Positions 4,240 through 42,969 of a DNA stretch of 64,000 nucleotides are shown piece after piece. The position numbers and the translations under genes were made by a program. The notes beneath the pieces were generated by a model, which was not told where the DNA came from, did not search any database, and worked only from the letters and a program-made list of their open reading frames with translations. This DNA comes from Heterodontus francisci (Eukaryota): assembly GCF_036365525.1 (NCBI RefSeq), contig NC_090421.1:2993327-3057326 (forward strand), given 5' to 3'. Position 1 is the first letter of the stretch. Every line of letters begins with the position of its first letter.

Positions 4240-4478
4240 CTTGTAAAAACATCCTAAGGCGCTTCACAGAAGCGATTATCAAACAGTATTTGACACTGAG
4301 CCGCATTAGAAGATATTAAGGTAAATGACCAAAAGCTTGGTCAAAGAGGTACATTTTAAGGTGTGTCTTAAAGGTGGAAAGAGGGGTAGAAATGCAGATA
4401 GGTTTAGGAAGGGAATTCCAGAGCTTCAGGCCTTGGCAGCTGAAGGCACGGCCGCCAATGAGGGAGCAATTAAAATCA
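4240..4478 (-). mobile_element. L2-type LINE 3' fragment
   Basis: Related to the reverse complement of the element at 10-110; truncated where the tandem array begins. Confidence 0.5.
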
Positions 4479-4784
4479 AACACTCCCAGGGCAGCTACAG
4501 CACGGGGTTAAATACAGAGTAAAGCTCCCTCTACACTGTCCCCATCAAACACTCCCCAGGACAGGTACAGTACAAGGGGTTAGATACAGAGTAAAGCTCC
4601 CTCTACACTGTCCCCATCAAACACTCCCAGGACAGGTACAGTACAGGGGGTTAGATACAGAGTAAAGCTCCCTCTACACTGTCCCATCAAACACTCCCAG
4701 GACAGGTACAGTACAGGGGGTTAGATACAGAGTAAAGCTCCCTCTACACTGTCCCATCAAACACTCCCAGGACAGGTACAGCAC
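4476..4784 (+). repeat. ~70-bp tandem repeat array, left part (~4.4 units); target of the Tx1 insertions
   Basis: Unit ggggttagatacagagtaaagctccctctacactgtcccatcaaacactcccaggacaggtacagcac. Period 70-72 bp (tta register at 4508, 4580, 4651, 4721). Confidence 0.95.
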
Positions 4785-5466
4785 TGGGATTGGCTGCTCT
4801 CTGATTTGGGAGCCTGAGTGTTGAGAGCCTCAACGAGGTGCAGCTGAGAGTGCTGGTGGCAGTTGGAGGTTGCAGAGGTGGAGAGAGGAGCTGCACTGAG
4901 CAAGGGAGAGCAGCTACCAACAAGCAGAGGAAAACTCCAACAACAGTCTCCATTAAAGAGAAGAAAGAGACATTTTTTGGAACAAGGCTTTGTCTGGAGG
5001 TGGGTGCTGAACACCAGTAATTTACTTTGGACTGTTGGGGGAGGAACAAGTGGCTGGAACAACAAGGGGTGGGGCTGCCAATTCAACAGGAGTCTGTGCT
5101 GCTGCAAAAGCACACAGGGAAGCTCCCTCCCCACCCCAATTGCCAAACCTGGGTCAGCTGAAGCTGCCCAGCTAAACAGACGGAAGGGGATAGATAGTGC
5201 CTGGGCAGCTTCAGCTGACCCAGGTGAAGACGACTCCCCCAACCAGAAGACCGGAAGACCAACTTCAAAGACTGTTTGTTTTAAGTGTACTGTGAGCACC
5301 ACCTCCAGAAAGCAAGTCATCCCTTCCAGCCTGCCTTTGCCTCTCCTCTCTTACCTCAGCCTCTCCACTAACCTGTTGTTTGTTTGTTTGTCTTTTCAAA
5401 TTTTTCTGTGAATCTGTTATTTAGTGTGCAAGTCCACAATTTGGGGTGGGTTTAGCTCTTGGACCC

Positions 5467-7509
5467 ATGGCAAGCCCTTCATCACCGGTGGCGGGGCCCT
5501 CTACTACCTACGCAGCTGCAGCTTCTGTGGCTGCCCACGTGGCCCCGTCACCCTTTAAATTATTGACATGCAGCCATGGGGTGAAGAGCTATCCCCACCC
5601 CAACATGTCTATTGAGGCCTGCGTTAAGGCAATGGCCGTGGTTGTCGGCCCCTCGGCCATTGTTGCGGCCTCAAAAATGTATGGGAAGGCTGTGTTCTTT
5701 TTGAAGACTGAGCGGGCGGTGTCCCTGGCCCTGAGTAAAGGGCTCACTGTGGGGGGGACCTTCCTGCCAGTGGACCCTCTGGGGGCCACTGCGCATCGGA
5801 TAATGTTGTCCAACGTCCCACCCTTCATTCCCAGTGAGCTCCTCCTCCCCCACCTACACCATCTGGGGGAGGTGAGGTCGGGGATCACCCCAGTCCGGCT
5901 TGGTCTTCGGGAGCACAGCCTCCAACATGTCTACTCCTTCCGCCGCCAGTTATTTATGCAGCTGGCGCGGGAGGAGGACACGGAGGGCCAATTTAATGTG
6001 GAGTTCCAGGGGACGGCCTACCGCGTCTTTTGGACCTCGGACGGGGCGCGGTGCCACGTCTGCAAGGGGGTGGGGCATGTTCGGAAGAACTGCCCCAACC
6101 TCCCGGCCGCCAGCTCCACCTCGGCGGCCCAGAGTGGTTCCACAGCACCTCCTCCCACTCCCCCCGCACATCCAACAGACACCGCTCAGTCGGTTCCGGA
6201 GGCTGTGGTTTTCACAGCCTCTGGCGGGGAGGGGAGCGTCCGTCCGAGCGGAAGGAAGACGCGGGGAAAAAAGAAACATCGTGAGGCGCGTCCCCTGGAC
6301 ACTTTGACTCAACCCGAGCCTGAGCTCAGCCCAAAGCCCATTCCCATGGAATCCACCTGTCCCAGGGCTGGGCTCAGGCCCAGGGTGACTAAAAAAGGAA
6401 AAAAGGGTGCGGAGGCGGAGGCCTCTGATGACATGGAGGTCTCTGAGTCTCCGCGCCCAAGTGCGAAAAAGAGGAGAAGGCACCCCTCCACAGAAATAAC
6501 ACAGGGCCCTGAGGTGCAGGGCCCATCTGTTGGAGGGGAGCTGCCTCCTGTTTCTGGTCCTCAGGTGCCCCCTACCGCCACCACCAAGGCTGCAAAGTCC
6601 GGGCAGGTGCTCCCTATTCCTCAGGATGGAGGGGAGGGGATGGCCCCGGTACGTGAGGCCCCTCCTGAAGGAGTAAGTGGGGCCCTGCTTGTGGTGGGGG
6701 AGCCTGGGGAAACCGCCCATTCCGCCACTGCTACTGGGTCGGGTGTCCTGAATGAAGGGGAGGGCGAGGCCCCAGAGGGTCGGGCCTCCCAGCCGGAGTC
6801 CACCACCAACCAGGAGACACCCGACCCAGTTATAACTGAGAATGCTGCCCCATCTGCTGGGCCTGTGGGTGCTGGCGGAGCGGGAGATGGCCTCCTCTCG
6901 CCGCCTCCAGTCTCGGCTCCGGCTGGTTTCCCGGAGTCCGGAACTTCTGTCTCCCCTGGACCAGTCATTGGCCTGGGGATGGAGGTGGAGGGGGGTCCTG
7001 AACCGCTGGTGCCTACAGGCTCCAGTTTCACAATAGAACCCAGAGAGGACTCCTCCGCCATCGATCCTGGGGGTGGGATCGTGACGGAGGCGGGACCAGC
7101 TGGCGCGGCCGGGACGTCCGCCCCACAGTGTGTGGTGGATGTGTCGGCCGCTGGCGGTGACGACCCGGAGGAGGATGGGGATTCGGTGCGGGGCACGGAG
7201 GATGATCTTGATTCCATCGCCAGTGAGGTGGTGGAGTCCCTCGTGCCTCCCACCGAATCTCCTCTCATCCCCACGGCGGAACTCCGGGATTTCCTCGCGG
7301 CTTGCAGAGGTTGCCGCAATAAAGTTCAGCTGGCCCTCGACCGTTGGTCGAATCTGGCGCTGATCATCCAGTCCGTCCGTGCCGCCCTTAAGATAGCGGG
7401 CAAGCGCGCGGACGTGAAACTGGTTGAGAGGCGCCGTTTTAATGTGTTCCTCAATGGGTTGCTGGGGGAGTGGAGGGCCAGGTGCACTTCCACTCCCTCC
7501 TCACAGTGA
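5467..7509 (+). CDS. Tx1 ORF1 protein (CCHC zinc knuckle; ZCCHC3/Tx1-ORF1-like), copy 1
   Basis: First ATG in cccATGg context; CHVCKGVGHVRKNC knuckle; long Pro/Gly/Glu-rich C-terminal half. Confidence 0.9.
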   Translation: MASPSSPVAGPSTTYAAAASVAAHVAPSPFKLLTCSHGVKSYPHPNMSIEACVKAMAVVVGPSAIVAASKMYGKAVFFLKTERAVSLALSKGLTVGGTFLPVDPLGATAHRIMLSNVPPFIPSELLLPHLHHLGEVRSGITPVRLGLREHSLQHVYSFRRQLFMQLAREEDTEGQFNVEFQGTAYRVFWTSDGARCHVCKGVGHVRKNCPNLPAASSTSAAQSGSTAPPPTPPAHPTDTAQSVPEAVVFTASGGEGSVRPSGRKTRGKKKHREARPLDTLTQPEPELSPKPIPMESTCPRAGLRPRVTKKGKKGAEAEASDDMEVSESPRPSAKKRRRHPSTEITQGPEVQGPSVGGELPPVSGPQVPPTATTKAAKSGQVLPIPQDGGEGMAPVREAPPEGVSGALLVVGEPGETAHSATATGSGVLNEGEGEAPEGRASQPESTTNQETPDPVITENAAPSAGPVGAGGAGDGLLSPPPVSAPAGFPESGTSVSPGPVIGLGMEVEGGPEPLVPTGSSFTIEPREDSSAIDPGGGIVTEAGPAGAAGTSAPQCVVDVSAAGGDDPEEDGDSVRGTEDDLDSIASEVVESLVPPTESPLIPTAELRDFLAACRGCRNKVQLALDRWSNLALIIQSVRAALKIAGKRADVKLVERRRFNVFLNGLLGEWRARCTSTPSSQ

Positions 7510-7541
7510 GCTGTTGGTGACGGGTTTTACGTACCTTTGAC

Positions 7542-10500
7542 ATGAAGATAACCATAGCCAGCCTCAACATCAACGGCAGCAGAGGGGCTCACCGCAGATT
7601 TCACAATCTCTCAGTCCTTAGGGAAGGGAGATACGCGGTGAGCTTTCTGCAGGAAACCCACACCGTTCCGGGAGACGAAGCCACCTGGCTCCTGGAGTGG
7701 CAGGGTGGGGTCTACATGAGTCACCTCACCCCTATTTCTAGTGGGGTGGCTATCTTGTTGGCCCCGACTTTTCAGCCGGAGATCTTGGGGGTCAAGGAGC
7801 TAGTGCCGGGCCGCTTGCTCCACCTCGCCGTTCGCCTGGGTAGCGTGCCGCTCCACTTTGTGAACGTGTACGCGCCCAGGCCCGGCGCTTTGCAAGCGCG
7901 CTTCTTTGAAGAAGTGTCCGCTCTCTTGAGCTCCATCGACAGCGGCGAGTGCATCATCCTCGGGGGGGATTTTAACTGCACCCTCGAGGTGGGGGATCGC
8001 TCCGGTCCCCAGCGCGGCCAAGCGTCGGTGGAGAAGTTGAGGGGACTGATCAGCTCCCTTAACTTGGTGGACGTCTGGCGGAATCTCCATCCCGACTCCA
8101 GCGCCTTCACGTGGAGGTCTGGAGGAGGGGGGTCGCGAATCGACCGCCTCTACATTTCGCAGGCGTACGTCTCCCGCGTTTCGGCGGCCTCCATGCGGCT
8201 GGTGCCGTGCTCGGACCACCGCCTGGTGTGGGCGGAGTTCACTCCGCTCCGCACGCGGGCGGGGTCCGCGTACTGGCACTTTAACAACCGGCTGCTGGAG
8301 GACGTGCGATTTCGGGACTCGTTCTGTCGATTCTGGACCGACTGGAGAAGGAAGCAGGGGGGCTTCCCCTCCTTGAGGCTATGGTGGGATGTGGGCAAGA
8401 CTCACATCCGCGTCTTCTGTCAGGAGTACGCGAAGGGGTCGACCAAGAGGCGGGAAGCCGAGGTCGGGCGCCTTGAGAGGGAGGTGCTCGACTTGGAATC
8501 CCGCCTCGGTCATGCCGTCGCGGACCCGGCCCTGTGGCAGGCGTACAAAGAGAAGAAGGGCGCGCTGAGGAACCTGCAGCTCATAGGGTCCCGAGGCGCG
8601 TACGTGAGGTCGCGGATCCAGATCCTGGAAGATTTGGACCGCGCCTCACCCTTCTTCTACTCGCTGGAAAAATGGCGGGGGGTCCGTAAGCAGCTTGTCG
8701 AGCTGCTGGCCGACGACGGATCCTCCATCACGGATCCGGAGGGAATGGGCCTCCTGGTCCGGACGTATTACAGTGCGTTGTTCTCTCCGGATCCGTCCAG
8801 CGAGGATGCGCGCAGAGTTTTGTGGGAGGACCTGCCGCAGGTCAGCCCGGAGGGCGCCGAAGGATTGGAGGCTCCGCTCACGTTGGCGGAGCTGACTGGC
8901 GCCCTCCACCAGCTCTCGAGGGGCAAATCCCCAGGGCTGGATGGGTTGACCGTGGAGTTCCTCAGGGCGTTCTGGGACGTCCTGGGGGACGATTACGCGC
9001 GGGTCCTGGGGGAAAGCCTGGCGACCGGGGAGATGCCCCTCTCGTGGCGCAGGGCGGTCATCGTCCTGCTGCCGAAGAGGGGCGATCTCCGCCTGCTTAA
9101 AAACTGGCGTCCGGTCTCCCTCCTCAGCACGGATTATAAGATCTTTGCCCGGGCTATGTCTACCCGCCTGGGCTCCGTGCTGGCCCACATGATCCACCCC
9201 GACCAGTCCTACACGGTCCCGGGCCGGTCCATCCAGGACAACATCCACCTGGTCCGGGACCTGATCCATCTTTCCCAGAGGACTGGTCAGTCGGTCGCCT
9301 TTCTCTCCCTCGATCAGGAGAAGGCGTTCGACAGGGTGGATCACGATTACCTTTTCGGGACTCTGCGCGCTTTCGGACTCGGGCCGCATTTCGTGGCCCG
9401 GGTCCGACTTTTATACGCCGCCGCAGAGTGTCTAGTCAAAGTTAACGGGTCCTTGACGGCGCCCCTTCGATTTGGGAGAGGAGTGCGTCAGGGATGCCCC
9501 ATGTCCGGCCAATTGTATACCATCTGCGTGGAGCCCTTCCTGTGCCTGCTTCGCAGGAGGTTGACGGGATTGGCTCTGCGCGAGCCGGCCATGCGGGTCG
9601 TCCTCTCGGCTTACGCCGACGACGTGCTCCTCGCAATCACAGATCCCGTTGACTCGCGGAGGATGCGCGACTGCCAGCAGACCTTTTCTGCCGCGTCCTC
9701 CGCGAGGATCAATTGGGAGAAATGTTCCGGACTCCTGGTTGGTCAGTGGCGGGTGGATTCCCTGCCGGAGGAGATGACACCTTTTGCGTGGAGCACCACG
9801 CACCTCCTCTATCTGGGAGTCCACCTTAGCCCCGCTGAGGAAGCCTGGCCGGCAAACTGGCAGGAGTTGGAGGCGAAAGTCACCGCTCGGCTGGGGCGCT
9901 GGACAGGACTGCTCCGAGTGCTTTCCTACAGGGGCCGAGCGTTGGTCATAAACCAACTGGTGGCCTCCATGCTGTGGTACCGGTTGGTCACTTTGGCCCC
10001 GCCCCCTGTATTTGCCACCAAGATCCAGAAGAAACTCGTCGATTTCTTCTGGGGCAAGAGGAAACACTGGGTCTCTGCCGCGGTCCTGAGTCTCCCGATC
10101 GAGGAGGGCGGTCAGTCGCTGGTGTGCGTCCGCACCCAGGCTGCGACTCTCCGCCTTCGGACCCTGCAGAGATACCTGTACGTCGAGCGTCCTCCCAGAT
10201 GGTGTGCGCTGGCGACGTATTTTTTCCGTCAGTGTCACTGCCTTCAAGACGACACGCAGCTCCCGGTGGAGTCCGTTAGCCGCGCCTCTCTGAGGGAGTT
10301 GCCTGTCTTTTACCGGGATCTTTTCCGAGTCTGGAACATGGTCGCCTCCAGTCAGGGCGCTCCCCCGCCGGCGGAGGAGAGCGCCTCGGCTGTCCGGGCG
10401 GCCGACTCCGGGGACGGTCCGGCGGGCGGAGGAGTAGCTGAAACCCCCGGGACGCCCCTCACTGTGGGTGGCGAGGGGGCTCGGGAGTGCGGAGCGATCC

Positions 10501-11279
10501 CGGCCGAGCTGACCCCCGCTGGGCCGGAACTGCTCATCGGACCCAGGCCCCGAAACCCTCCTCGGGAGCCGGTCCCGCACAACCCGAGCCGCCTCTCGGG
10601 AATGCCCTCCGTGCCATTCCAATCGGCGCGGAGGGGTTTCCTGTACGGGCTGCTCCTGCACACTTTCCACTTCCTCGCCCTCGTCAGCCGGCCGGACACG
10701 CCCTGGCGGTCCGCGTTGCCATCTGGCGGCGAGGGGAAACCCCGATGGAGGTCTCTCTACGCGGGAGTCTTCCCCCTTTACATCGGGGACCTGGGGTGGA
10801 GGGTGCTGCACAGAGCAGTCCCGTGCAATAGGCTTTTAAGTAGGTTCACGGACTCCCAGGCCACCTGTACTTTCTGCGGCCTGGACGAGTCCGTGTTCCA
10901 CATTTATACGGAGTGTGCGAGGTTGCAGCCCCTATTTGAGTATCTGAAGGGGCTGCTCCTCAAATTCTGGCTGCACTTCAGTCCCACGCTCCTGATCTTT
11001 GGGCACCCGGTGCGGAGGGGCTTGGGCCGGGAGGAGGATCTCCTCGTCGGTCTGCTCCTGGGCCTGGCCAAGGTGGCAATTCACAGGTCCAGGTTGCGGG
11101 CCGTCGGGGGTTCCGTCCTCCCTGATTGCCTGCCCCTCTTCCGCGGTTACGTTCGCGCCCGGGTGTCCCTGGAAAAGGAGCATGCGGTGTCCGCCGGTAC
11201 GCTTGAGGCCTTCCGCGACCGGTGGGCACCGCAGGGACTGGAGTGCATCGTCGACGCCGAGAATGGCATTTTAATTTGA
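7542..11279 (+). CDS. Tx1 ORF2 protein: APE endonuclease + reverse transcriptase + C-terminal zinc finger, copy 1
   Basis: SLNING, LQETH, GGDFN, SRIDR, SDH (APE); KSPGLDG, WRPVSLL, LDQEKAFD, RQGCPMS, YADD (RT); CTFC...H...C. 1245 aa, uninterrupted. Confidence 0.96.
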   Translation: MKITIASLNINGSRGAHRRFHNLSVLREGRYAVSFLQETHTVPGDEATWLLEWQGGVYMSHLTPISSGVAILLAPTFQPEILGVKELVPGRLLHLAVRLGSVPLHFVNVYAPRPGALQARFFEEVSALLSSIDSGECIILGGDFNCTLEVGDRSGPQRGQASVEKLRGLISSLNLVDVWRNLHPDSSAFTWRSGGGGSRIDRLYISQAYVSRVSAASMRLVPCSDHRLVWAEFTPLRTRAGSAYWHFNNRLLEDVRFRDSFCRFWTDWRRKQGGFPSLRLWWDVGKTHIRVFCQEYAKGSTKRREAEVGRLEREVLDLESRLGHAVADPALWQAYKEKKGALRNLQLIGSRGAYVRSRIQILEDLDRASPFFYSLEKWRGVRKQLVELLADDGSSITDPEGMGLLVRTYYSALFSPDPSSEDARRVLWEDLPQVSPEGAEGLEAPLTLAELTGALHQLSRGKSPGLDGLTVEFLRAFWDVLGDDYARVLGESLATGEMPLSWRRAVIVLLPKRGDLRLLKNWRPVSLLSTDYKIFARAMSTRLGSVLAHMIHPDQSYTVPGRSIQDNIHLVRDLIHLSQRTGQSVAFLSLDQEKAFDRVDHDYLFGTLRAFGLGPHFVARVRLLYAAAECLVKVNGSLTAPLRFGRGVRQGCPMSGQLYTICVEPFLCLLRRRLTGLALREPAMRVVLSAYADDVLLAITDPVDSRRMRDCQQTFSAASSARINWEKCSGLLVGQWRVDSLPEEMTPFAWSTTHLLYLGVHLSPAEEAWPANWQELEAKVTARLGRWTGLLRVLSYRGRALVINQLVASMLWYRLVTLAPPPVFATKIQKKLVDFFWGKRKHWVSAAVLSLPIEEGGQSLVCVRTQAATLRLRTLQRYLYVERPPRWCALATYFFRQCHCLQDDTQLPVESVSRASLRELPVFYRDLFRVWNMVASSQGAPPPAEESASAVRAADSGDGPAGGGVAETPGTPLTVGGEGARECGAIPAELTPAGPELLIGPRPRNPPREPVPHNPSRLSGMPSVPFQSARRGFLYGLLLHTFHFLALVSRPDTPWRSALPSGGEGKPRWRSLYAGVFPLYIGDLGWRVLHRAVPCNRLLSRFTDSQATCTFCGLDESVFHIYTECARLQPLFEYLKGLLLKFWLHFSPTLLIFGHPVRRGLGREEDLLVGLLLGLAKVAIHRSRLRAVGGSVLPDCLPLFRGYVRARVSLEKEHAVSAGTLEAFRDRWAPQGLECIVDAENGILI

Positions 11280-11415
11280 GTTTTTTGTTTATTTATCTGT
11301 TTTAATAAAGTTATTTTAAAACTGTAAATATGTACATAAAGGGGGCCTGAGGGATAAAGGCCCCCTCGATGTGAAAAATATAAAAGGGGCCTGGGGTATA
11401 AAGGTCACCTTGTGG

Positions 11416-11446
<31 letters not shown>

Positions 11447-12228
11447 GGGGTTAGATACAGAGTAAAGCTCCTTAAAAAAAAAAGAAAAAAAAAAAAAAAA
11501 AAAAAACGGGGTTAGAATAAGGAAAAAAAGAAAAAAAAAAAAACTGGGATTGGCTGCTCTCTGATTTGGGAGCCTGAGTGTTGAGAGCCTCAACGAGGTG
11601 CAGCTGAGAGTGCTGGTGGCAGTTGGAGGTTGCAGAGGTGGAGAGAGGAGCTGCACTGAGCAAGGGAGAGCAGCTACCAACAAGCAGAGGAAAACTCCAA
11701 CAACAGTCTCCATTAAAGAGAAGAAAGAGACATTTTTTGGAACAAGGCTTTGTCTGGAGGTGGGTGCTGAACACCAGTAATTTACTTTGGACTGTTGGGG
11801 GAGGAACAAGTGGCTGGAACAACAAGGGGTGGGGCTGCCAATTCAACAGGAATCTGTGCTGCTGCAAAAGCACACAGGGAAGCTCCCTCCCCACCCCAAT
11901 TGCCAAGCCTGGGTCAGCTGAAGCTGCCCAGCTAAACAGACGGAAGGGGATAGATAGTGCCTGGGCAGCTTCAGCTGACCCAGGTGAAGACGACTCCCCC
12001 AACCAGAAGACCGGAAGACCAACTTCAAAGACTGTTTATTTTAAGTGTACTGTGAGCACCACCTCCAGAAAGCAAGTCATCCCTTTCAGCCTGCCTTTGC
12101 CTCTCCTCTCTTACCTCAGCCTCTCCACTAACCTGTTGTTTGTTTGTTTGTCTTTTCAAATTTTTCTGTGAGTCGCTGTTATTTAGTGTGCAAGTCCACA
12201 ATTTGGGGTGGGTTTAGCTCTTGGACCC

Positions 12229-14265
12229 ATGGCAAGCCCTTCATCACCGGTGGCGGGGCCCTCTACTACCTACGCAGCTGCAGCTTCTGTGGCTGCCCAC
12301 GTGGCCCCGTCACCCTTTAAATTATTGACATGCAGCCATGGGGTGAAGAGCTATCCCCACCCCAACATGTCTATTGAGGCCTGCGTTAAGGCAATGGCCG
12401 TGGTTGTCGGCCCCTCGGCCATAGTTGCGGCCTCAAAGATGTATGGGAAGGCTGTGTTCTTTTTGAAGACCGAGCGGGCGGTGTCCCTGGCCCTGAGTAA
12501 AGGGCTCACTGTGGGGGGGACCTTCCTGCCAGTGGACCCTCTGGGGGCCACTGCGCATCGGATAATGTTGTCCAACGTCCCACCCTTCATTCCCAGTGAG
12601 CTCCTCCTCCCCCACCTGCACCATCTGGGGGAGGTGAGGTCGGGGATCACCCCAGTCCGGCTTGGTCTTCGGGAGCACAGCCTCCAACATGTCTACTCCT
12701 TCCGCCACCAGTTATTTATGCAGCTGGCGCGGGAGGAGGACACGGAGGGCCAATTTAATGTGGAGTTCCAGGGGACGGCCTACCGCGTCTTTTGGACCTC
12801 GGACGGGGCGCGGTGCCATGTCTGCAAGGGGGTGGGGCATGTTCGTAAGAACTGCCCCAACCTCCCGGCCGCCAGCTCCACCTCGGCGGCCCAGAGTGGT
12901 TCCACAGCACCTCCTCCCACTCCCCCCGCACATCCAACAGACACCGCTCAGTCGGTTCCGGAGGCTGTGGTTTTCACAGCCTCTGGCGGGGAGGGGAGCG
13001 TCCGTCCGAGCGGAAGGAAGACGCGGGGAAAAAAGAAACATCGTGAGGCGCGTCCCCTGGACACTTTGACTCAACCCGAGCCTGAGCTCAGCCCAAAGCC
13101 CATTCCCATGGAATCCACCTGTCCCAGGGCTGGGCTCAGGCCCAGGGTGACTAAAAAAGGAAAAAAGGGTGCGGAGGCCTCTGATGACATGGAGGTCTCT
13201 GAGTCTCCGCGCCCAAGTGCGAAAAAGAGGAGAAGGCACCCCTCCACAGAAATAACACAGGGCCCTGAGGTGCAGGGCCCATCTGTTGGAGGGGAGCTGC
13301 CTCCTGTTTCTGGTCCTCAGGTTCCCCCTACCGCCACCACCAAGGCTGCAAAGTCCGGGCAGGAGCACTCTATTCCTCAGGATGGAGGGGAGGGGATGGC
13401 CCCGGTACGTGAGGCCCCTCCTAAAGGAGTAAGTGGGGCCCTGCTTGTGGTGGGGGAGCCTGGGGAAACCGCCCATTCCGCCACTGCTACTGGGTCGGGT
13501 GCCCTGAATGAAGGGGAGGGCGAGGCCCCAGAGGGTCGGGCCTCCCAGCCGGAGTCCACCACCAACCAGGAGACACCCGACCCAGTTATAACTGAGAATG
13601 CTGCCCCATCTGCTGGGCCTGTGGGTGCTGGCGGAGTGGGAGATGGCCTCCTCTCGCCGCCTCCAGTCTCGGCTCCGGCTGGTTTCCCGGAGTCCGGAAC
13701 TTCTGTCTCCCCTGGACCACTCGTTGGCCTGGGGATGGAGGTGGAGGGGGGTCCTGAACCGCTGGTGCCTACAGGCTCCAGTTTCACAATAGAACCCAGA
13801 GAGGACTCCTCCGCCATCGATCCTGGGGGTGGGATCGTGACGGAGGCGGGACCAGCTGGCGCGGCTGGGACGTCCGCCCCACAGTGTGTGGTGGATGTGT
13901 CGGCCGCTGGCGGTGACGACCCGGAGGAGGATGGGGATTCGGTGCGGGGCACGGAGGATGATCTTGATTCCATCGCCAGTGAGGTGGTGGAGTCCCTCGT
14001 GCCTCCCACCGAATCTCCTCTCATCCCCACGGCGGAACTCCGGGATTTCCTCGTGGCTTGCAGAGGTTGCCGCAATAAAGTTCAGCTGGCCCTCGACCGT
14101 TGGTCGAATCTGGCACTGATCATCCAGTCCGTCCGTGCCGCCCTTAAGATAGCGGGCAAGCGCGCGGACGTGAAACTGGTTGAGAGGCGCCGTTTTAATG
14201 TGTTCCTCAATGGGTTGCTGGGGGAGTGGAGGGCCAGGTGCACTTCCACTCCCTCCTCACAGTGA
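12229..14265 (+). CDS. Tx1 ORF1 protein, copy 2
   Basis: As copy 1, with a 6-bp in-frame deletion (EAEAS to EAS) and several substitutions. Confidence 0.9.
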   Translation: MASPSSPVAGPSTTYAAAASVAAHVAPSPFKLLTCSHGVKSYPHPNMSIEACVKAMAVVVGPSAIVAASKMYGKAVFFLKTERAVSLALSKGLTVGGTFLPVDPLGATAHRIMLSNVPPFIPSELLLPHLHHLGEVRSGITPVRLGLREHSLQHVYSFRHQLFMQLAREEDTEGQFNVEFQGTAYRVFWTSDGARCHVCKGVGHVRKNCPNLPAASSTSAAQSGSTAPPPTPPAHPTDTAQSVPEAVVFTASGGEGSVRPSGRKTRGKKKHREARPLDTLTQPEPELSPKPIPMESTCPRAGLRPRVTKKGKKGAEASDDMEVSESPRPSAKKRRRHPSTEITQGPEVQGPSVGGELPPVSGPQVPPTATTKAAKSGQEHSIPQDGGEGMAPVREAPPKGVSGALLVVGEPGETAHSATATGSGALNEGEGEAPEGRASQPESTTNQETPDPVITENAAPSAGPVGAGGVGDGLLSPPPVSAPAGFPESGTSVSPGPLVGLGMEVEGGPEPLVPTGSSFTIEPREDSSAIDPGGGIVTEAGPAGAAGTSAPQCVVDVSAAGGDDPEEDGDSVRGTEDDLDSIASEVVESLVPPTESPLIPTAELRDFLVACRGCRNKVQLALDRWSNLALIIQSVRAALKIAGKRADVKLVERRRFNVFLNGLLGEWRARCTSTPSSQ

Positions 14266-14297
14266 GGTGTTGGTGACGGGTTTTAAGTACCTTTGAC

Positions 14298-17200
14298 ATG
14301 AAGATAACCATAGCCAGCCTCAACATCAACGGCAGCAGAGGGGCTCACCGCAGATTTCACAATCTCTCAGTCCTTAGGGAAGGGAGATACGCGGTGAGCT
14401 TTCTGCAGGAAACCCACACCGTTCCGGGAGACGAAGCCACCTGGCTCCTGGAGTGGCAGGGTGGGGTCTACATGAGTCACCTCACCCCTATTTCTAGTGG
14501 GGTGGCTATCTTGTTGGCCCCGACTTTTCAGCCGGAGATCTTGGGGGTCAAGGAGCTAGTGCCGGGCCGCTTGCTCCACCTCGCCGTTCGCCTGGGTAGC
14601 GTGCCGCTCCACTTTGTGAACGTGTACGCGCCCAGGCCCGGCGCGTTGCAAGCGCGCTTCTTTGAAGAAGTGTCCGCTCTCTTGAGCTCCATCGATAGCG
14701 GCGAGTGCATCATCCTCGGGGGGGATCTTAACTGCACCCTCGAGGTGGGGGATCGCTCCGGTCCCCAGCGCGGCCAAGCGTCGGTGGAGAAGTTGAGGGG
14801 ACTGATCAGCTCCCTTAACTTGGTGGACGTCTGGCGGAATCTCCATCCCGACTCCAGCGCCTTCACGTGGAGGTCTGGAGGAGGGGGGTCGCGAATCGAC
14901 CGCCTCTACATTTCGCAGGCGTACGTCTCCCGCGTTTCGGCGGCCTCCATGCGGCTGGTGCCGTGCTCGGACCACCGCCTGGTGTGGGCGGAGTTCACTC
15001 CGCTCCGCACGCGGGCGGGGTCCGCGTACTGGCACTTTAACAACCGGCTGCTGGAGGACGTGCGATTTCGGGACTCGTTCTGTCGATTCTGGGCCGACTG
15101 GAGAAGGAAGCAGGGGGGCTTCCCCTCCTTGAGGCTATGGTGGGATGTGGGCAAGACTCACATCCGCGTCTTCTGTCAGGAGTACGCGAAGGGGTCGACC
15201 AAGAGGCGGGAAGCCGAGGTCGGGCGCCTTGAGAGGGAGGTGCTCGACTTGGAATCCCGCCTCGGTCATGCCGTCGCGGACCCGGCCCTGTGGCAGGCGT
15301 ACAAAGAGAAGAAGGGCGCGCTGAGGAACCTGCAGCTCATAGGGTCCCGAGGCGCGTACGTGAGGTCGCGGATCCAGATCCTGGAAGATTTGGACCGCGC
15401 CTCACCCTTCTTCTACTCGCTGGAAAAATGGCGGGGGGTCCGTAAGCAGCTCATCGAGCTGCTGGCCGACGACGGATCCTCCATCACGGATCCAGAGGGA
15501 ATGGGCCTCCTGGTCCGGACTTATTACAGTGCGTTGTTCTCTCCGGATCCGTCCAGCGAGGATGCGCGCAGAGTTTTGTGGGAGGACCTGCCGCAGGTCA
15601 GCCCGGAGGGCGCCGAAGGATTGGAGGCTCCGCTCACGTTGGCGGAGCTGACTGGCGCCCTCCACCAGCTCTCGAGGGGCAAATCCCCAGGGCTGGATGG
15701 GTTGACCGTGGAGTTCCTCAGGGCGTTCTGGGACGTCCTGGGGGACGATTACGCGCGGGTCCTGGGGGAAAGCCTGGCGACCGGGGAGATGCCCCTCTCG
15801 TGGCGCAGGGCGGTCATCGTCCTGCTGCCGAAGAGGGGCGATCTCCGCCTGCTTAAAAACTGGCGTCCGGTCTCCCTCCTCAGCACGGATTATAAGATCT
15901 TTGCCCGGGCTATGTCTACCCGCCTGGGCTCCGTGCTGGCCCACATGATCCACCCCGACCAGTCCTACACGGTCCCGGGCTGGTCCATCCAGGACAACAT
16001 CCACCTGGTCCGGGACCTGATCCATCTTTCCCAGAGGACTGGTCAGTCGGTCGCCTTTCTCTCCCTCGATCAGGAGAAGGCGTTCGACAGGGTGGATCAC
16101 GATTACCTTTTCGGGACTCTGCGCGCTTTCGGACTCGGGCCGCATTTCGTGGCCTGGGTCCGACTTTTATACGCCGCCGCAGAGTGTCCAGTCAAAGTTA
16201 ACGGGTCCTTGACGGCGCCCCTTCGATTTGGGAGAGGAGTGCGTCAGGGGTGTCCCATGTCCGGCCAATTGTATACCATCTGCGTGGAGCCCTTCCTGTG
16301 CCTGCTTCGCAGGAGGTTGACGGGATTGGCTCTGCGCGAGCCGGCCATGCGGGTCGTCCTCTCGGCTTACGCCGACGACGTGCTCCTCGCAATCACAGAT
16401 CCCGTTGACTTGCGGAGGATGCGCGACTGCCAGCAGACCTTTTCTGCCGCGTCCTCCGCGAGGATCAATTGGGAGAAATGTTCCGGACTCCTGGTTGGTC
16501 AGTGGCGGGTGGACTCCCTGCCGGAGGAGATGACACCTTTTGCGTGGAGCACCACGCACCTCCTCTATCTGGGAGTCCAGCTTAGCCCCGCTGAGGAAGC
16601 CTGGCAGGCAAACTGGCAGGAGTTGGAGGCGAAAGTCACCGCTCGGCTGGGGCGCTGGACAGGACTGCTCCGAGTGCTTTCCTACAGGGGCCGAGCGTTG
16701 GTCATAAACCAACTGGTGGCCTCCATGCTGTGGTACCGGTTGGTCACTTTGGCCCCGCCCCCTGTATTTGCCACCAAGATCCAGAAGAAACTCGTCGATT
16801 TCTTCTGGGGCAAGAGGAAACACTGGGTCTCTGCCGCGGTCCTGAGTCTCCCGATTGAGGAGGGAGGTCAGTCGCTGGTGTGCGTCCGCACCCAGGCTGC
16901 GACTCTCCGCCTTCGGACCCTGCAGAGATACCTGTACGTCGAGCGTCCTCCCAGATGGTGTGCGCTGGCGACGTATTTTTTCCGCCAGTGTCACTGCCTT
17001 CAAGACGACACGCAGCTCCCGGTTGAGTCCGTTAGCCGCGCCTCTCTGAGGGAGTTGCCTGTCTTTTACCGGGATCTATTCCGAGTCTGGAACATGGTCG
17101 CCTCCAGTCAGGGTGCTCCCCCGCCGGCGGAGGAGAGCGCCTCGGCTGTCCGGGTGGCTGACTCCGGGGACGGTCCGGCGGGCGGAGGAGTAGCCGAAAC

Positions 17201-18035
17201 CCCCGGGACGCCCCTCACTGCGGGTGGCGAGGGGGCTTGGGAGTGCGGAGCGATCCCGACAGAGCTGACCCCCGCTCGGCCGGAACTGCTCATCGGACCC
17301 AGGCCCCGAAACCCTCCTCGGGAGCCGGTCCCGCACAACCCGAGCCGCCTCTCGGAAATGCCCTCCGTGCCATTCCAATCGGCGCAGAGGGCTTTCCTGT
17401 ACGGGCTGCTCCTGCACACTCTCCACTTCCTCGCCCTCGTCAGCCGGCCGGACACGCCCTGGCGGTCCGTGTTGCCATCTGGTGGCGAGGGGAAACCCCG
17501 ATGGAGGTCTCTCTACGCGGGAGTCTTCCCCCTTTACATCGGGGACCTGGGGTGGAGGGTGCTGCACAGAGCAGTCCCGTGCAATAGACTTTTAAGTAGG
17601 TTCACGGACTCCCAGGCCGCCTGTACTTTCTGCGGCCTGGACGAGTCCGTGTTCCATGTTTATACGGAGTGTGCGAGGTTGCAGCCCTTCTTTGAGTATC
17701 TGAAGGGGCTGCTCCTCAAATTCTTGCTGCACTTCAGTCCCACGCTCCTGATCTTTGGGCACCCGGTGCGGAGGGGCGTGGGCCGGGAGGAGGATCTCCT
17801 CGTCGGTCTGCTCCTGGGCCAGGCCAAGGTGGCAATTCACAGGTCCAGGTTGCGGGCCGTCGGGGGTTCCGTCCTGCCCGATTGCCTGCCCCTCTTCCGC
17901 GGTTACGTTCGCGCCCGGGTGTCCCTGGAGAAGGAGCATGCGGTGTCTGCCGGTACGCTTGAGGCCTTCTGCGACCGGTGGGCACCGCAGGGACCGGAGT
18001 GCATCATTGACGCCGAAAATGGCATTTTAATTTGA
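14298..18035 (+). CDS. Tx1 ORF2 protein, copy 2
   Basis: 1245 aa, uninterrupted; 28 aa differences from copy 1 by manual comparison. Confidence 0.96.
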   Translation: MKITIASLNINGSRGAHRRFHNLSVLREGRYAVSFLQETHTVPGDEATWLLEWQGGVYMSHLTPISSGVAILLAPTFQPEILGVKELVPGRLLHLAVRLGSVPLHFVNVYAPRPGALQARFFEEVSALLSSIDSGECIILGGDLNCTLEVGDRSGPQRGQASVEKLRGLISSLNLVDVWRNLHPDSSAFTWRSGGGGSRIDRLYISQAYVSRVSAASMRLVPCSDHRLVWAEFTPLRTRAGSAYWHFNNRLLEDVRFRDSFCRFWADWRRKQGGFPSLRLWWDVGKTHIRVFCQEYAKGSTKRREAEVGRLEREVLDLESRLGHAVADPALWQAYKEKKGALRNLQLIGSRGAYVRSRIQILEDLDRASPFFYSLEKWRGVRKQLIELLADDGSSITDPEGMGLLVRTYYSALFSPDPSSEDARRVLWEDLPQVSPEGAEGLEAPLTLAELTGALHQLSRGKSPGLDGLTVEFLRAFWDVLGDDYARVLGESLATGEMPLSWRRAVIVLLPKRGDLRLLKNWRPVSLLSTDYKIFARAMSTRLGSVLAHMIHPDQSYTVPGWSIQDNIHLVRDLIHLSQRTGQSVAFLSLDQEKAFDRVDHDYLFGTLRAFGLGPHFVAWVRLLYAAAECPVKVNGSLTAPLRFGRGVRQGCPMSGQLYTICVEPFLCLLRRRLTGLALREPAMRVVLSAYADDVLLAITDPVDLRRMRDCQQTFSAASSARINWEKCSGLLVGQWRVDSLPEEMTPFAWSTTHLLYLGVQLSPAEEAWQANWQELEAKVTARLGRWTGLLRVLSYRGRALVINQLVASMLWYRLVTLAPPPVFATKIQKKLVDFFWGKRKHWVSAAVLSLPIEEGGQSLVCVRTQAATLRLRTLQRYLYVERPPRWCALATYFFRQCHCLQDDTQLPVESVSRASLRELPVFYRDLFRVWNMVASSQGAPPPAEESASAVRVADSGDGPAGGGVAETPGTPLTAGGEGAWECGAIPTELTPARPELLIGPRPRNPPREPVPHNPSRLSEMPSVPFQSAQRAFLYGLLLHTLHFLALVSRPDTPWRSVLPSGGEGKPRWRSLYAGVFPLYIGDLGWRVLHRAVPCNRLLSRFTDSQAACTFCGLDESVFHVYTECARLQPFFEYLKGLLLKFLLHFSPTLLIFGHPVRRGVGREEDLLVGLLLGQAKVAIHRSRLRAVGGSVLPDCLPLFRGYVRARVSLEKEHAVSAGTLEAFCDRWAPQGPECIIDAENGILI

Positions 18036-18182
18036 GTTTTTGTTGATTTATCTGGTCTTAAATAAAGTTATTTTTTTTTAAACCTGTAAATATGTATATA
18101 AAGGGGGCCTGAGGAATAAAGGCCCCCTCAACATGAAAATATAAAAGGGGCCTGGGGTATAAAGGTCACCTTAAAACAAAAA

Positions 18183-18395
18183 CGGGGGTTAGATAAAAAA
18201 AAAACGGGGGTTAAAAAAAAAGAAAAAGAAAAAAAAAAACGGGGGTTAGATACAGAGTAAAGCTCCCTCTACACTGCCCCATCAAACATTCCCAGGACAG
18301 GTAAAGCACGGGGGTTAGATAAAAAAAATTGGGGGTTAGATACAGAGTAAAAAAAAACGGGTTAGATACAGAGTAAAGCTCCCTCTACACTGTCC
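18183..18395 (+). repeat. ~70-bp tandem repeat array, right part, interrupted by A-tracts
   Basis: One full unit (18240-18308) plus partial units, each restarting at (c)ggg(gg)tt after an A-tract. Confidence 0.92.
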
Positions 18396-18751: not shown

Positions 18752-18814
18752 GCGGATGACCATCCTTCTGCCAGCGTGGCTGAACTAAATCGTCAGATTG
18801 AGAAACTAAGTAAG
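18752..18814 (+). CDS. BAZ2A: BAZ2A coding exon
   Basis: cttcttag|...|gtgagt. Encodes ADDHPSASVAELNRQIEKLSK (BAZ2A ELERQIEKLSK). Confidence 0.9.
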
Positions 18815-22430: not shown

Positions 22431-25413
22431 AATTAGAATTAGAATTAGAACATTACAGCGCAGTACAGGCCCTTCGGCCCTCGATGTTGCGCCGACCTGT
22501 GAAACCATCTGACCTACACTATTCCATTTTCATCCATATGTCTATCCAATGACCACTTAAATGCCCTTAAAGTTGGCGAGTCTACTACTGCTGCAGGTAG
22601 GGCGTTCCACGCCCCTACTACTCTCTGAGTAAAGAAACTACCTCTAACATCTGTCCTATATCTATCACCCCTCAACTTAAAGCTATGTCCCCTCGTGTTT
22701 GCCATCACCATCCGAGGAAAAAGACTCTCACTATCCACCCTATCTAACCCTCTGATTATCTTATATGTCTCTATTAAGTCACCTCTCCTCCTCCTTCTCT
22801 CCAACGAAAACAACCTCAAGTCCCTCAGCCTTTCCTCGTAAGACCTTCCCTCCATACCAGGCAACATCCTAGTAAATCTCCTCTGCACCCTTTCCATAGC
22901 TTCCACATCCTTCCTATAATGCGGTGACCAGAACTGCACGCAATACTCCAGGTGCGGTCTCACCAGAGTTTTGTAGAGCTGCAGCATGACCTCGTGGCTC
23001 CGAAACTCGATCCCCCTACTAATAAAAGCTAACACACCATATGCCTTCTTAACAGCCCTATTAACCTGGGTAGCAACCTTCAGGGATTTATGCACCTGGA
23101 CACCAAGATCTCTCTGTTCATCTACACTACCAAGAATCTTCCCATTAGCCCAGTACTCTGCATTCCTGTTACTCCTTCCAAAGTGAATCACCTCGCACTT
23201 ATCCGCATTAAACTCCATTTGCCATCTCTCAGCCCAGCTCTGCAGCCTATCTATGTCTCTCTGTACCCTACAACATCCTTCGGCACTATCCACAACTCCA
23301 CCGACCTTAGTGTCATCCGCAAATTTACTAACCCACCCTTCTACACCCTCTTCCAGGTCATTTATAAAAATGACAAACAGCAGTGGCCCCAAAACAGATC
23401 CTTGCGGTACACCACTAGTAACTAAACTCCAGGATGAACATTTGCCATCAACCACCACCCTCTGTCTTCTTTCAGCTAGCCAATTTCTGATCCAAAGCTC
23501 TAAATCACCTTCAACCCCATACTTCCGTATTTTCTGCAATAGCCTACCATGGGGAACCTTATCAAACGCCTTACTGAAATCCATGTACACCACATCCACT
23601 GCTTTACCCTCATCCACCTGTTTGGTCACCTTCTCGAAAAACTCAATAAGGTTTGTGAGTCACGACCTACCCGTCACAAAACCGTGCTGACTATCGCTAA
23701 TGAACTTATTCTTTTCAAGATGATTATAAATCCTGTCTCATAACCTTTTCCAACATTTTACCCACAACCGAAGTAAGGCTCACAGGTCTATAATTACCAG
23801 GGCTGTCTCTACTCCCCTTCTTGAACAAGGGGACAACATTTGCTATCCTCCAGTCTTCCGGCACTATTCCTGTCGACAATGACGACATAAAGATCAAGGA
23901 CAAAGGCTCTGCAATCTCCTCCCGAGCTTCCCAGAGAATCCTAGGATAAATCCCATCTGGCCCAGGGGACTTATCTATTTTCACACTTTCCAAAATTGAT
24001 AACACCTCCTCCTTGTGAACCTCAATCCCATCTAGCCTAGTAGTCTGAATCTCAGTATTCTCCTCGACAACATTTTCTTTCTCTACTGTAAATACTGACG
24101 CAAAATATTCATTTAACACTTCCCCTACCTCCTCTGATTCCACACACAACTTCCCACTACTATCCTTGATTGGCCCTAATCTAACTCTAGTCATTCTTTT
24201 ATTCCTGATATACCTATAGAAAGCCTTAGGGTTTTCCCTGATCCTATCCGCCAATGACTTCTCGTGTCCTCTCCTTGCTCGTCTTAGCTCTCCCTTTAGA
24301 TCCTTCCTGGCTAGCTTGTAACTCTCAAGCGCCCTAACTGAGCCTTCACGTCTCATCCTAACATAAGCCTTCTTCTTCCTCTTGACAAGCGCTTCAACTT
24401 CTTTAGTAAACCATGGCTCCCTCGCTCGACAACTTCCTCCCTGCCTCACAGGTACATACTTATCAAGGACACGCAGTAGCTGCTCCTTGAATAAGCTCCA
24501 CATTTCGATTGTTCCCATCCCCTGCAGTTTCCTTCCCCATCCTACGCATCCTAAATCTTGCCTAATCGCATCATAATTTCCTTTCCCCCAGCTATAATTT
24601 TTGCCCTGCGGTATATACCTGTCCCTGCCCATCGCTAAGGTAAACCTAACCGAATTGTGATCACTATCACCAAAGTGCTCACCTACATCTAAATCTAACA
24701 CCTGGCCGGGTTCATTACCCAGTACCAAATCCAATGTGGCATCGCCCCTGGTTGGCCTGTCTACATACTGTGTCAGAAAACCCTCCTGCACACACTGGAC
24801 AAAAACTGACCCATCTAAAGTACTCGAACTATAGTATTTCCAGTCGATATTTGGAAAGTTAAAGTCCCCCATAACAACTACCCTGTTACTCTCGCCCCTG
24901 TCGTGAATCATCTTCGCTATCCTTTCCTCTACATCTCTGGAACTATTTGGAGGTCTATAAAAGACTCCCAACAGGGTGACCTCACCTCTCCTGTTTCTAA
25001 CCTCGGCCCATACTACCTCCGTAGACGTGTCCTCAAACGTCCTTTCTGTCGCTGTAATACTCTCCTTGATTAACAATGCCACACCCCCCCCTCTTTTACC
25101 ATCTTCTCTGTTCTTACTGAAACATCTAAATCCCGGAACCTGCAACATCCATTCCTGCCCCTGCAGGAATGAACTGGGTAATGAACCCGGCCAGGTGTTA
25201 GATTTAGATGTAGGTGAGCACTTTGGTGATAGTGATCACAATTCGGTTAGGTTTACCTTAGCGATGGGCAGTGACAGGTATATACCGCAGGGCAAAAATT
25301 ATAGCTGGGGGAAAGGAAATTATGATGCGATTAGGTAAGATTTAGGATGCGTAGGATGGGGAAGGAAACTGCAGGGGATGGGAACAATCGAAATGTGGAG
25401 CTTATTCAAGGAG
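22431..25413 (-). mobile_element. Young 5'-truncated CR1 LINE with an inverted internal duplication at its 5' end
   Basis: (ttctaa)n tail at ~22431-22450. ORF2 pieces 23724-25148 (APE: GDFN, SDH) and 22514-23629 (RT: PQGSVLGP, FADD), split by a frameshift. 25173-25413 is the reverse complement of 24483-24723. Confidence 0.92.
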
Positions 25414-28430: not shown

Positions 28431-28596
28431 ATAAAAGCAAAATACTGCAGATGCTGGAAATCTGAAATAAAAACAAGAAATGCTGAAAACACTCAGCAGG
28501 TCTGAAGAAGGGTCATTGACCTGAAACATTAACTCTGCTTCTCTCTCCACAGATGCTGCCAGACCTGCTGAGTATTTCCAGCATTTCTTGTTTTTA
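28431..28596. mobile_element. Second inverted Penelope terminal-repeat mini-element
   Basis: A minus-strand terminus joined to a plus-strand piece beginning ctgaagaagggtcattgacctgaaac. 15-bp TSD gatcaaact(t/g)gtttg at 28416-28430 and 28597-28611. Confidence 0.8.
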
Positions 28597-32774: not shown

Positions 32775-32932
32775 ATTCCATCTTTAGCAATAATAACAAA
32801 GAGCAGTCCATTACCAAGGAAATGGTGGAGATGTGGAAACCAGAGAAGTGGGCATTTCCAGTCGACCTTGCAGCCCTGCGCTACCTTGAGGCACTGGAGC
32901 AGAGAGTGATATCTGCAAGTCTGCAGGTGAAG
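32775..32932 (+). CDS. BAZ2A: BAZ2A coding exon
   Basis: tttcttag|...|gtaaga. Encodes DSIFS...WKPEKWAFPVDLAALRYLEALEQRVISASLQVK. Confidence 0.92.
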
Positions 32933-41232: not shown

Positions 41233-41852
41233 GTGTCGGGCTGTGGGGAACTCCGTGTCGGGCTGTGGGGAACTCCGTGTCGGGCTGTGGGGAACTCCGT
41301 GTCGGGCTGTGGGGAGCTCCGTGCCGGGCTGTGGGGAGCTCCGTGCCGGGCTGTGGGGAGCTCCGTGCCGGGCTGTGGGGAGCTCCGTGCCGGGCTGTGG
41401 GGAGCTCCGTGTCGGGCTGTGGGGAGCTCCGTGTCGGGCTGTGGGGAGCTCCGTGTCGGGCGGTGGTGAACTCTGATGGGCTGTGGGGAACTCTGTGATG
41501 GGCTGTGGGGAGCTCCGTGATGGGCTGTGGGGAGCTCCGTGATGGGCTGTGGGGAGCTCCGTGATGGGCTGTGGGGAACTCCGTGTCGGGCTGTGGGGAG
41601 CTCCGTGTCGGGCTGTGGGGAACTCTGATGGACTGTGGGGAGCTCCGTGTCGGGCGGTGGTGAACTCCGTGTCGGGCGGTGGTGAACTCCGTGTCGGGCG
41701 GTGGTGAACTCCGTGTCGGGCTGTGGGGAGCTCCGTGTCGGGCTGTGGGGAGCTCCGTGTCGGGCGGTGGTGAACTCTGATGGGCTGTGGGGAACTCTGT
41801 GATGGGCTGTGGGGAACTCTGTGATGGGCTGTGGGGAACTCCGTGATGGGCT
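41233..41852 (+). repeat. G-rich 22-bp minisatellite (~28 units)
   Basis: Unit gggctgtggggagctccgtgtc with variants; period 22. Confidence 0.95.
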
Positions 41853-42825: not shown

Positions 42826-42969
42826 GGTTATCCTCATGGAAATGGAATCCCACGAGGATGCCTGGCCCTTCCTGCATCCTGTGAACCCACGACTGGTGCC
42901 TGGCTACAGGAAAATCATCAAAAGGCCCATGGACTTTTCCACTATCAGGGGAAAGCTCATTAGTGGGAA
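42826..42969 (+). CDS. BAZ2A: BAZ2A bromodomain exon
   Basis: ctccacag|...|gtaagt. Encodes VILMEMESHEDAWPFLHPVNPRLVPGYRKIIKRPMDFSTIRGKL. Confidence 0.95.

Follow-up and report, generated by a model that had tools for sequence, protein, structure and literature searches.

Alternating poly(A) tracts and target fragments at two tandem Tx1-clade LINEs of Heterodontus francisci, and their possible origin in reiterative TPRT initiation

The window analyzed here is a stretch of 64,000 nucleotides from Heterodontus francisci (contig NC_090421.1, positions 2,993,327 to 3,057,326 of the forward strand), and all coordinates below refer to it. On its plus strand, a tandem repeat with a period of ~70 bp and 4.5 units occupies positions 4475–4783 (TRF period 70, 95% matches; unit alignment). 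The alignment of its units showed that the final upstream unit is interrupted after ...CAGCA, which is the left half of the target site of the elements described here. From 5′ to 3′, and all on the plus strand, the repeat is followed by a first full-length LINE (E1, 4784–11415), a first cassette of alternating poly(A) and target fragments (11416–11543), a second full-length LINE (E2, 11544–18172), a second cassette (18173–18239), a whole repeat unit (18240–18308), a third cassette (18309–18357) and a terminal partial unit (18358–18395) that passes into unique sequence. The whole unit carries 5 G, differs from the upstream units at 4–10 columns and has the 5 G and the CCC spacing in common with upstream units 3 and 4; it is either the true right flank or else a read-through piece. 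The terminal partial unit has 3 G (G-run count and unit alignment). Three unit junctions (4574–4578, 4645–4650 and 4715–4720) have the variant left half GTACA and are uninterrupted; GCA followed by C is found at both interrupted junctions and also at one empty junction (4503), and these numbers are small.

No Rfam family matched anywhere in the 64,000-nt window, so the target is not a curated RNA family. The exact 24-nt target pattern had 0 matches in the prokaryotic genome contigs, and none of the 51 candidates obtained by comparing the translated repeat frame with longer proteins was significant. We take this repeat to be widespread in sharks. A literature search with the target motif, whose scope did not extend to Repbase, found no description of it, and the target of this Tx1 element is apparently previously undescribed. 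Spliceable exons on the plus strand were noted at 18752–18814, 32775–32932 and 42826–42969, the last of which encodes a bromodomain (Pfam 1.5e-10). Considering that this exon lies downstream of the elements on the same strand, the E1/E2 locus is probably intronic, with the elements in sense orientation; the host gene is presumably BAZ2-like. The sole PDB match of an exon peptide (E=1.2) was uninformative. Other repeats of the window include a 241-bp inverted repeat with 99% identity and arms 450 bp apart (24483–24723 and 25173–25413), which overlaps a minus-strand LINE frame bearing an endonuclease; a MITE-like palindromic dispersed repeat (2700–2944, self-inverted at 90%) with at least four partial copies, near 28431, 50447, 51725 and 57636; and a GC-rich minisatellite (41233–41852) of 28.5 copies of a 22-bp unit.

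ORF1 and ORF2 are open in both elements. In E1, ORF1 (5467–7509) contains a weak zinc knuckle (Pfam zf-CCHC, E=0.039, under the curated cut-off), and ORF2 (7542–11279) contains an APE-type endonuclease (Exo_endo_phos, 1.5e-16) and an RT (RVT_1, 1.9e-37). The corresponding frames of E2 lie at 12229–14265 and 14298–18035, and Pfam recognized both the endonuclease and the RT domain in ORF2 of either copy. ORF2 matched L1-EN structures at 1e-20 and was 50% identical to Xenopus Tx1L at 100% coverage. Its closest matches came from cartilaginous fish, including a Heterodontus protein (93% over 28% of the length) and a Hemitrygon protein (74% over 35%); against prokaryotic genome contigs, 15 pattern matches were obtained and 0 confirmed. 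In an RT tree of 26 rows (24 of the 120 matches plus E1 and E2), which was rooted at its midpoint with no named non-Tx1 outgroup, E1 and E2 grouped with a stingray protein (100/98), and together with Tx1L and the sturgeon, turtle and stingray proteins they formed one clade (100/100). An ORF2 with APE and RT domains, the grouping with Tx1L, the weak zinc knuckle of ORF1 and a poly(A) 3′ end were all found, and the element is, as judged from its sequence, an ordinary member of the Tx1 clade. Tx1 families are known to target transposons, microsatellites, small-RNA genes and satellites, and a family has been regarded as target-specific when more than 20% of its copies are flanked by one repeat type (PMC4494074, in the parts consulted); here 2 of 2 copies are repeat-flanked, both at one locus. 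The hairpin loop of the endonuclease (approximately 8103–8123) is Gly-rich and 7 residues long, a form common to the Heterodontus protein, and it has 11 residues in Tx1L and the turtle relatives. Among the 77 parsed of 120 matches, 50 had a loop of 11 residues and 9 a loop of 7. The short loop was considered as a sign of relaxed specificity and set aside as neutral, since an R1Bm-loop chimera aligns without gaps and the R1Bm loop is as short.

E1 and E2 differ at 111 of 6641 columns (1.7%) and have unlike 3′ ends, and they therefore represent separate insertions; a tandem duplication of a single element was ruled out on these grounds. The divergence is biased toward the 3′ end, with 0 differences in the first 250 nt and 21 in the last ~130 (11284–11415 versus 18040–18172), which may reflect recombination between subfamilies or 5′ homogenization. 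Two tandem hairpins were found in the 3′ UTR of E1 (11339–11411; fold z −3.95) and of E2 (18102–18172; z −3.08), the second of which closes exactly at the E2-type 3′ end; they are candidates for an RNA recognition or 3′-processing signal. Between the hairpins of E1, at 11379, lies a TATA-like word, the sole match to TATAWAWR in the 6.6-kb element. Both elements and all the target fragments described below share a single insertion phase in the repeat, and neither full element is associated with a duplication of more than 1 nt (0–1 nt at the E1 5′ junction). The 5′ end of each element (4784–4797 and 11544–11557) resembles the right half of the target at 9 of 14 positions. This likeness was noticed after the fact; by identity it is equalled by 0.23% of 6618 E1 14-mers, and by duplex energy (RNA parameters) it is equalled by 33% of them and is unremarkable.

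The first cassette had been picked out in a sequence-only reading, and on re-reading the sequence every segment of it was recovered. The tail of E1 is a pure A30 (11416–11445), followed by a 26-nt target fragment with 4 G (11446–11471), TT (11472–11473), an A10-G-A22 tract (11474–11506), a 10-nt target fragment again with 4 G (11507–11516), six non-target bases ATAAGG (11517–11522) and an A7-G-A13 tract (11523–11543) that adjoins the first base of E2. We found that the alternation extends further than was then described, with two more cassettes after E2. The second, in which all G runs are of 5, consists of A4CA5, a 12-nt fragment (18183–18194), A10, an 8-nt fragment (18205–18212) and A9GA5GA11. 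The third, which accompanies no element, consists of a 12-nt fragment, A8, TT, an 18-nt fragment without its first C, and A9. Over the whole locus there are six A-tracts without an element and six fragments, whose lengths are 26, 10, 12, 8, 12 and 18 nt. All six fragments start at the insertion point, five with the C found there and one with TT in place of it. Four fragments have clean ends, all at steps from T to A; such steps make up three of the six A-run starts in the first 30 nt of the target, so the agreement is suggestive only (p ~0.06). The observation that the fragments between the copies have 4 G and those after E2 mostly 5 was borne out by the counts, which are 4 and 4 between the copies and 5, 5, 5, 5, 5 and then 3 downstream of E2. 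On the left and right sides, the G counts are 4 versus 5 between the elements and 5 versus 3 in the third cassette; they are identical in the second only. Folding of the cassettes was not significant (z −1.58 and −0.10).

Assemblies are prone to error in repeats and in long runs of A, and reads from other loci could change G counts. An assembly or polishing artefact in this low-complexity sequence is nevertheless highly improbable, because both ORFs of both copies stay in frame across 186 G/C runs of four or more, the copies are distinct at 111 columns and every fragment is phased to the insertion point. Of the 23 A-runs of at least 8 in the window, six are directly followed by the target start word; these are six of the nine runs at the locus, against none of the 14 elsewhere, and outside the locus the start word itself occurs 11 times in 49,950 bases. 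Thus, the alternation is not due to chance. The feature is confirmed as real, with exact A and G run lengths as given by the assembly and not by raw reads.

The relative age of the copies bears on where the fragments came from. CpG sites intact in E1 and decayed in E2 numbered 23, as against 7 in the reverse direction (p=0.005), and 11 against 2 in the first 5.5 kb. Of the 28 residue differences in ORF2, 11 were derived in E2, 5 in E1 and 12 were ambiguous (p=0.21), and of the residues invariant in 10–11 relatives, 3 were changed in E2 and 1 in E1. These sequence comparisons suggest that E2 is probably older than E1, although the donor lineage, and not residence time alone, could contribute to the difference. 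The length of the A-tracts was tried as a clock, with the pure A30 as the youngest, and dropped, since inner tracts also expand (PMC3415434, as far as consulted). If E2 is older, the first cassette either predates E2 or came with E1 when this landed against the target-like 5′ end of E2. In the latter case its fragments would not be local duplications, because the right side at that place was element sequence. In the unit alignment, C-G4-TTAGAT occurs in no upstream unit, and the 4-G fragments between the copies were probably imported. The suggestion that they stem from a different target unit is therefore upheld and gains strength from the relative ages of the two copies. From this order of events, the tract at 11523–11543 would be the true 3′ junction of the E1 insertion.

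The framing of the cassettes as products of TPRT also proved right. Two forms of it had been proposed, of which the first was repeated abortive insertion at the same nick. Under this explanation, which we regard as unlikely, the site would be regenerated after each event, every event would leave poly(A) and a duplication of 8–26 nt, and E1 would have arrived last. The fragment lengths do resemble the top-strand nicks of L1 at +7, +11 and +19 in vitro, and an early start of the second strand has been proposed as a cause of truncation (both PMC7617806, in the parts consulted). The CC overlap and TT at 11470–11473 read like the end of an E2-type 3′ terminus, no element accompanies the third cassette, whose left half-site is intact, and sequential tandem insertion around a duplication has been reported for the Tx1-driven SINEU-3 (PMC4494074, within the portion consulted). 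However, six of the eight events would have to be poly(A)-only, with none between ~10 nt and full length. In human L1, 2% of insertions (157) are poly(A)-only and the median is 503 bp, according to the sections of 10.1101/2024.08.27.596794 consulted; with 6418 as denominator, our own sum of the classes listed there, the probability of at least six in eight is ~6e-9 if the L1 rate carries over. The duplications would also be bimodal, at 8–26 nt for the scraps and 0–1 nt at both full elements, and the orders of 26 before 10 and 12 before 8 force nicking at junctions of poly(A) and C without a left half. According to PMC1950540, as far as consulted, Tx1L-EN accepts a T-tract on the primer side, whereas the abortive explanation needs the opposite hybrid. 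Finally, in two cases the G count of the left copy is not that of the right, so that changes in the G run would be needed; the equality of left and right copies expected of a solo poly(A) insertion was found in the second cassette only. Independent abortive insertion is consequently the weaker option, given the poly(A)-only events, the bimodal duplications and the G mismatches.

The second form was serial 3′ transduction, in which the transcript of each generation would read a few bases into the target, acquire a new poly(A) and be copied whole, leaving stacked tails. This is possible, though we lean against it. Just two insertions at the locus would be required, with neither mutation of G runs nor duplications of variable length; the cassette abutting the older E2 would be accounted for, and TT and ATAAGG could come from sequence flanking the donor. 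Only variant hexamers, 15–37 nt from its end, are present in the element, and SVA offers a precedent for concatenated transductions, with 27 cases among 543 (PMC12593883, in the parts consulted). On the other hand, no enrichment of polyadenylation signals was found before the added A-tracts: variant hexamers lie 10–40 nt upstream of four of the six new tracts, against 4.5 expected. Five of six pieces measure 8–26 nt, compared with medians of 74–383 bp for SVA transductions (again PMC12593883 as far as consulted), and neighbouring copies would have had two and four consecutive generations of read-through with one G count per chain. Serial read-through thus explains the import and the G counts, but its re-polyadenylation step finds no positive support in the hexamers. 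Stacked fragments had also been suggested to help the RNA pair with the target; an RNA paired through one of its inner fragments would, however, presumably be primed at that point and lose whatever lies 3′ of it. Of the earlier reading as a whole, TPRT and the probable foreign origin of the 4-G pieces stand, the abortive events are weakened, and re-polyadenylation is left without positive support.

A tag at the 5′ end, as in HeT-A, was also weighed. Here the E2 RNA would have been transcribed from a promoter in the 3′ terminus of the preceding copy and so have begun with TT-poly(A)-target-poly(A), and the 26-nt piece would be the duplication of E2. The sole TATAWAWR word in 6.6 kb precedes the tail by 33 nt in E2 and by 37 nt in E1 and would place a start near the final TT, and HeT-A does carry such tags (10.1101/782904, in the portion consulted). 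But the UTR around this word is AT-rich and the word may serve as a polyadenylation signal, both downstream cassettes are left unexplained, the 26-nt piece has 4 G against 5 or 3 in the right flank, and E1 has neither tag nor duplication, which together make such a tag very unlikely.

A mechanism absent from the sequence-only reading, reiterative slippage on one read-through RNA, fits somewhat better. We tentatively favour it, at somewhat less than an even chance: the cassettes would be reiterative TPRT starts on read-through RNA by a repeat-targeting Tx1 LINE. As we infer each of its steps, the endonuclease would nick the bottom strand between AGCA and CGGGG, and the mRNA would be a read-through transcript comprising the element, the genomic poly(A) and the right target half of the donor. 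The RT would copy a short T run and release, the T run would pair anew with an A in the target part, nearer the 3′ end of the RNA, and the RT would then recopy the target back to the junction and again through the A tract, in a cycle that may recur. One processive round would give a full element; otherwise the event would close with scraps only. With a target-like 5′ end on E2, the junction of AGCA and the element would stay a usable site, and E1 would later have inserted at the junction of AGCA and E2, carrying the 4-G scraps of its donor. In a variant, the scraps would be copied from the nicked top strand of local DNA, which fits the downstream cassettes and not the one between the copies.

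Reiterative initiation would make a polyadenylation signal unnecessary. If the T run re-anneals to A's of the target, both the observed ends and lengths in any order would follow; all fragments start from the nick, their lengths (8, 10, 12, 12, 18 and 26 nt) are not arranged in a set order, and the four clean ends lie just before a target A. One template per event would give a uniform G count within a chain, as is found within chains and not between them (4 and 4 against 5s), and import from a 4-G donor would give a G mismatch with the flank; the greater age of E2 and the lack of C-G4-TTAGAT upstream agree with this. There are precedents in the parts of the sources consulted. L1 ORF2p slips in the A-tail and re-anneals at a more 3′ position of the RNA, so that non-A interruptions of the tail become duplicated (PMC3415434); it also incorporates bases without a template and switches between templates (PMC10830420). 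Annealing between RNA and target aids initiation by SART1 and R1Bm (PMC7265360). Against reiterative initiation, the case comes from one locus, a single A offers little hold for re-annealing, and slippage duplications of L1 were just 5 among ~200 Alu inserts (PMC3415434, as far as consulted), far rarer than here. The interruptions of A-tracts within one chain are not exactly alike, and additional ad hoc errors are needed for the last unit with 3 G, for ATAAGG and for the TT that precedes the 18-nt fragment. Pairing of target RNA with the 5′ end of E2 is no better than with a third of E1 14-mers. The likeness of the unit at 18240–18308 to local units 3 and 4 also makes local copying possible downstream.

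In having two ORFs and an APE endonuclease with RT, the element is like Xenopus Tx1L and the target-specific Tx1 LINEs (Keno, Kibi, Koshi, Tx1-Mar and those targeting satellites). It differs from Tx1L in its target, in an endonuclease loop of 7 rather than 11 residues and in the lack of a long duplication at full elements, the target-site duplication of Tx1L being reportedly ~23 bp. Its fixed phase in a multicopy target and its tandem insertion are again as in target-specific Tx1 LINEs (PMC4494074, in the parts consulted). The cassettes resemble the A-tail slippage of L1 ORF2p, where reiterative initiation duplicates non-A sequence inside the tail; that slippage is rare and engineered in the portion of PMC3415434 consulted, whereas in the cassettes it is the target site itself that recurs, in pieces of 8–26 nt, at both elements. 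Concatenated L1 and SVA 3′ transductions likewise have flank sequence between successive poly(A) tracts, but with longer unique flanks from different loci (PMC12593883, as far as consulted), in contrast to the short pieces of always the same target half found here. The proposed read-through RNA resembles that of R1Bm, SART1 and R2 in that its target part can pair with the primer strand; those elements belong to other clades and have single joins of poly(A) and target (PMC7265360 and PMC6530143, in the parts consulted). Short tagged pieces between head-to-tail elements recall the 5′ tags of HeT-A, which derive from the 3′ end of the upstream element (10.1101/782904, as far as consulted), whereas the present ones are target-derived and lie also 3′ of the last element. 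No Tx1 element with tails that alternate between poly(A) and target was found described in the literature searched, whose scope left aside most subscription papers and the Repbase reports and took in only parts of the papers cited; similar tails may exist in the supplementary junction alignments of PMC4494074. The compound tails are therefore like known products of slippage or transduction, in a form not found described.

These tails bear on how TPRT turns a precarious start into processive synthesis and on whether target sequence carried by the RNA helps or misleads priming, both of which matter for gene insertion with site-specific retrotransposons. Since the element targets one sequence in a polymorphic repeat, scraps in its tails can be assigned to donor or recipient by their variants, so that a genome-wide census would separate RNA-templated stutter, serial transduction and repeated nicking; as the ORFs of E1 are intact, a direct biochemical test is also feasible. 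The 5′ target mimic, if it holds, explains tandem arrays without long duplication. A bolder idea, and an improbable one, is that this lineage builds self-renewing head-to-tail arrays by design, with a 5′ target mimic by which every insertion would provide a fresh site, read-through target sequence in the RNA as a pairing guide copied reiteratively as in telomerase, and a 3′-terminal promoter for short RNAs of poly(A) and target, which would be inserted in trans and without the element. If that were true, compound tails would be a programmed feature of the whole family and not local accidents.
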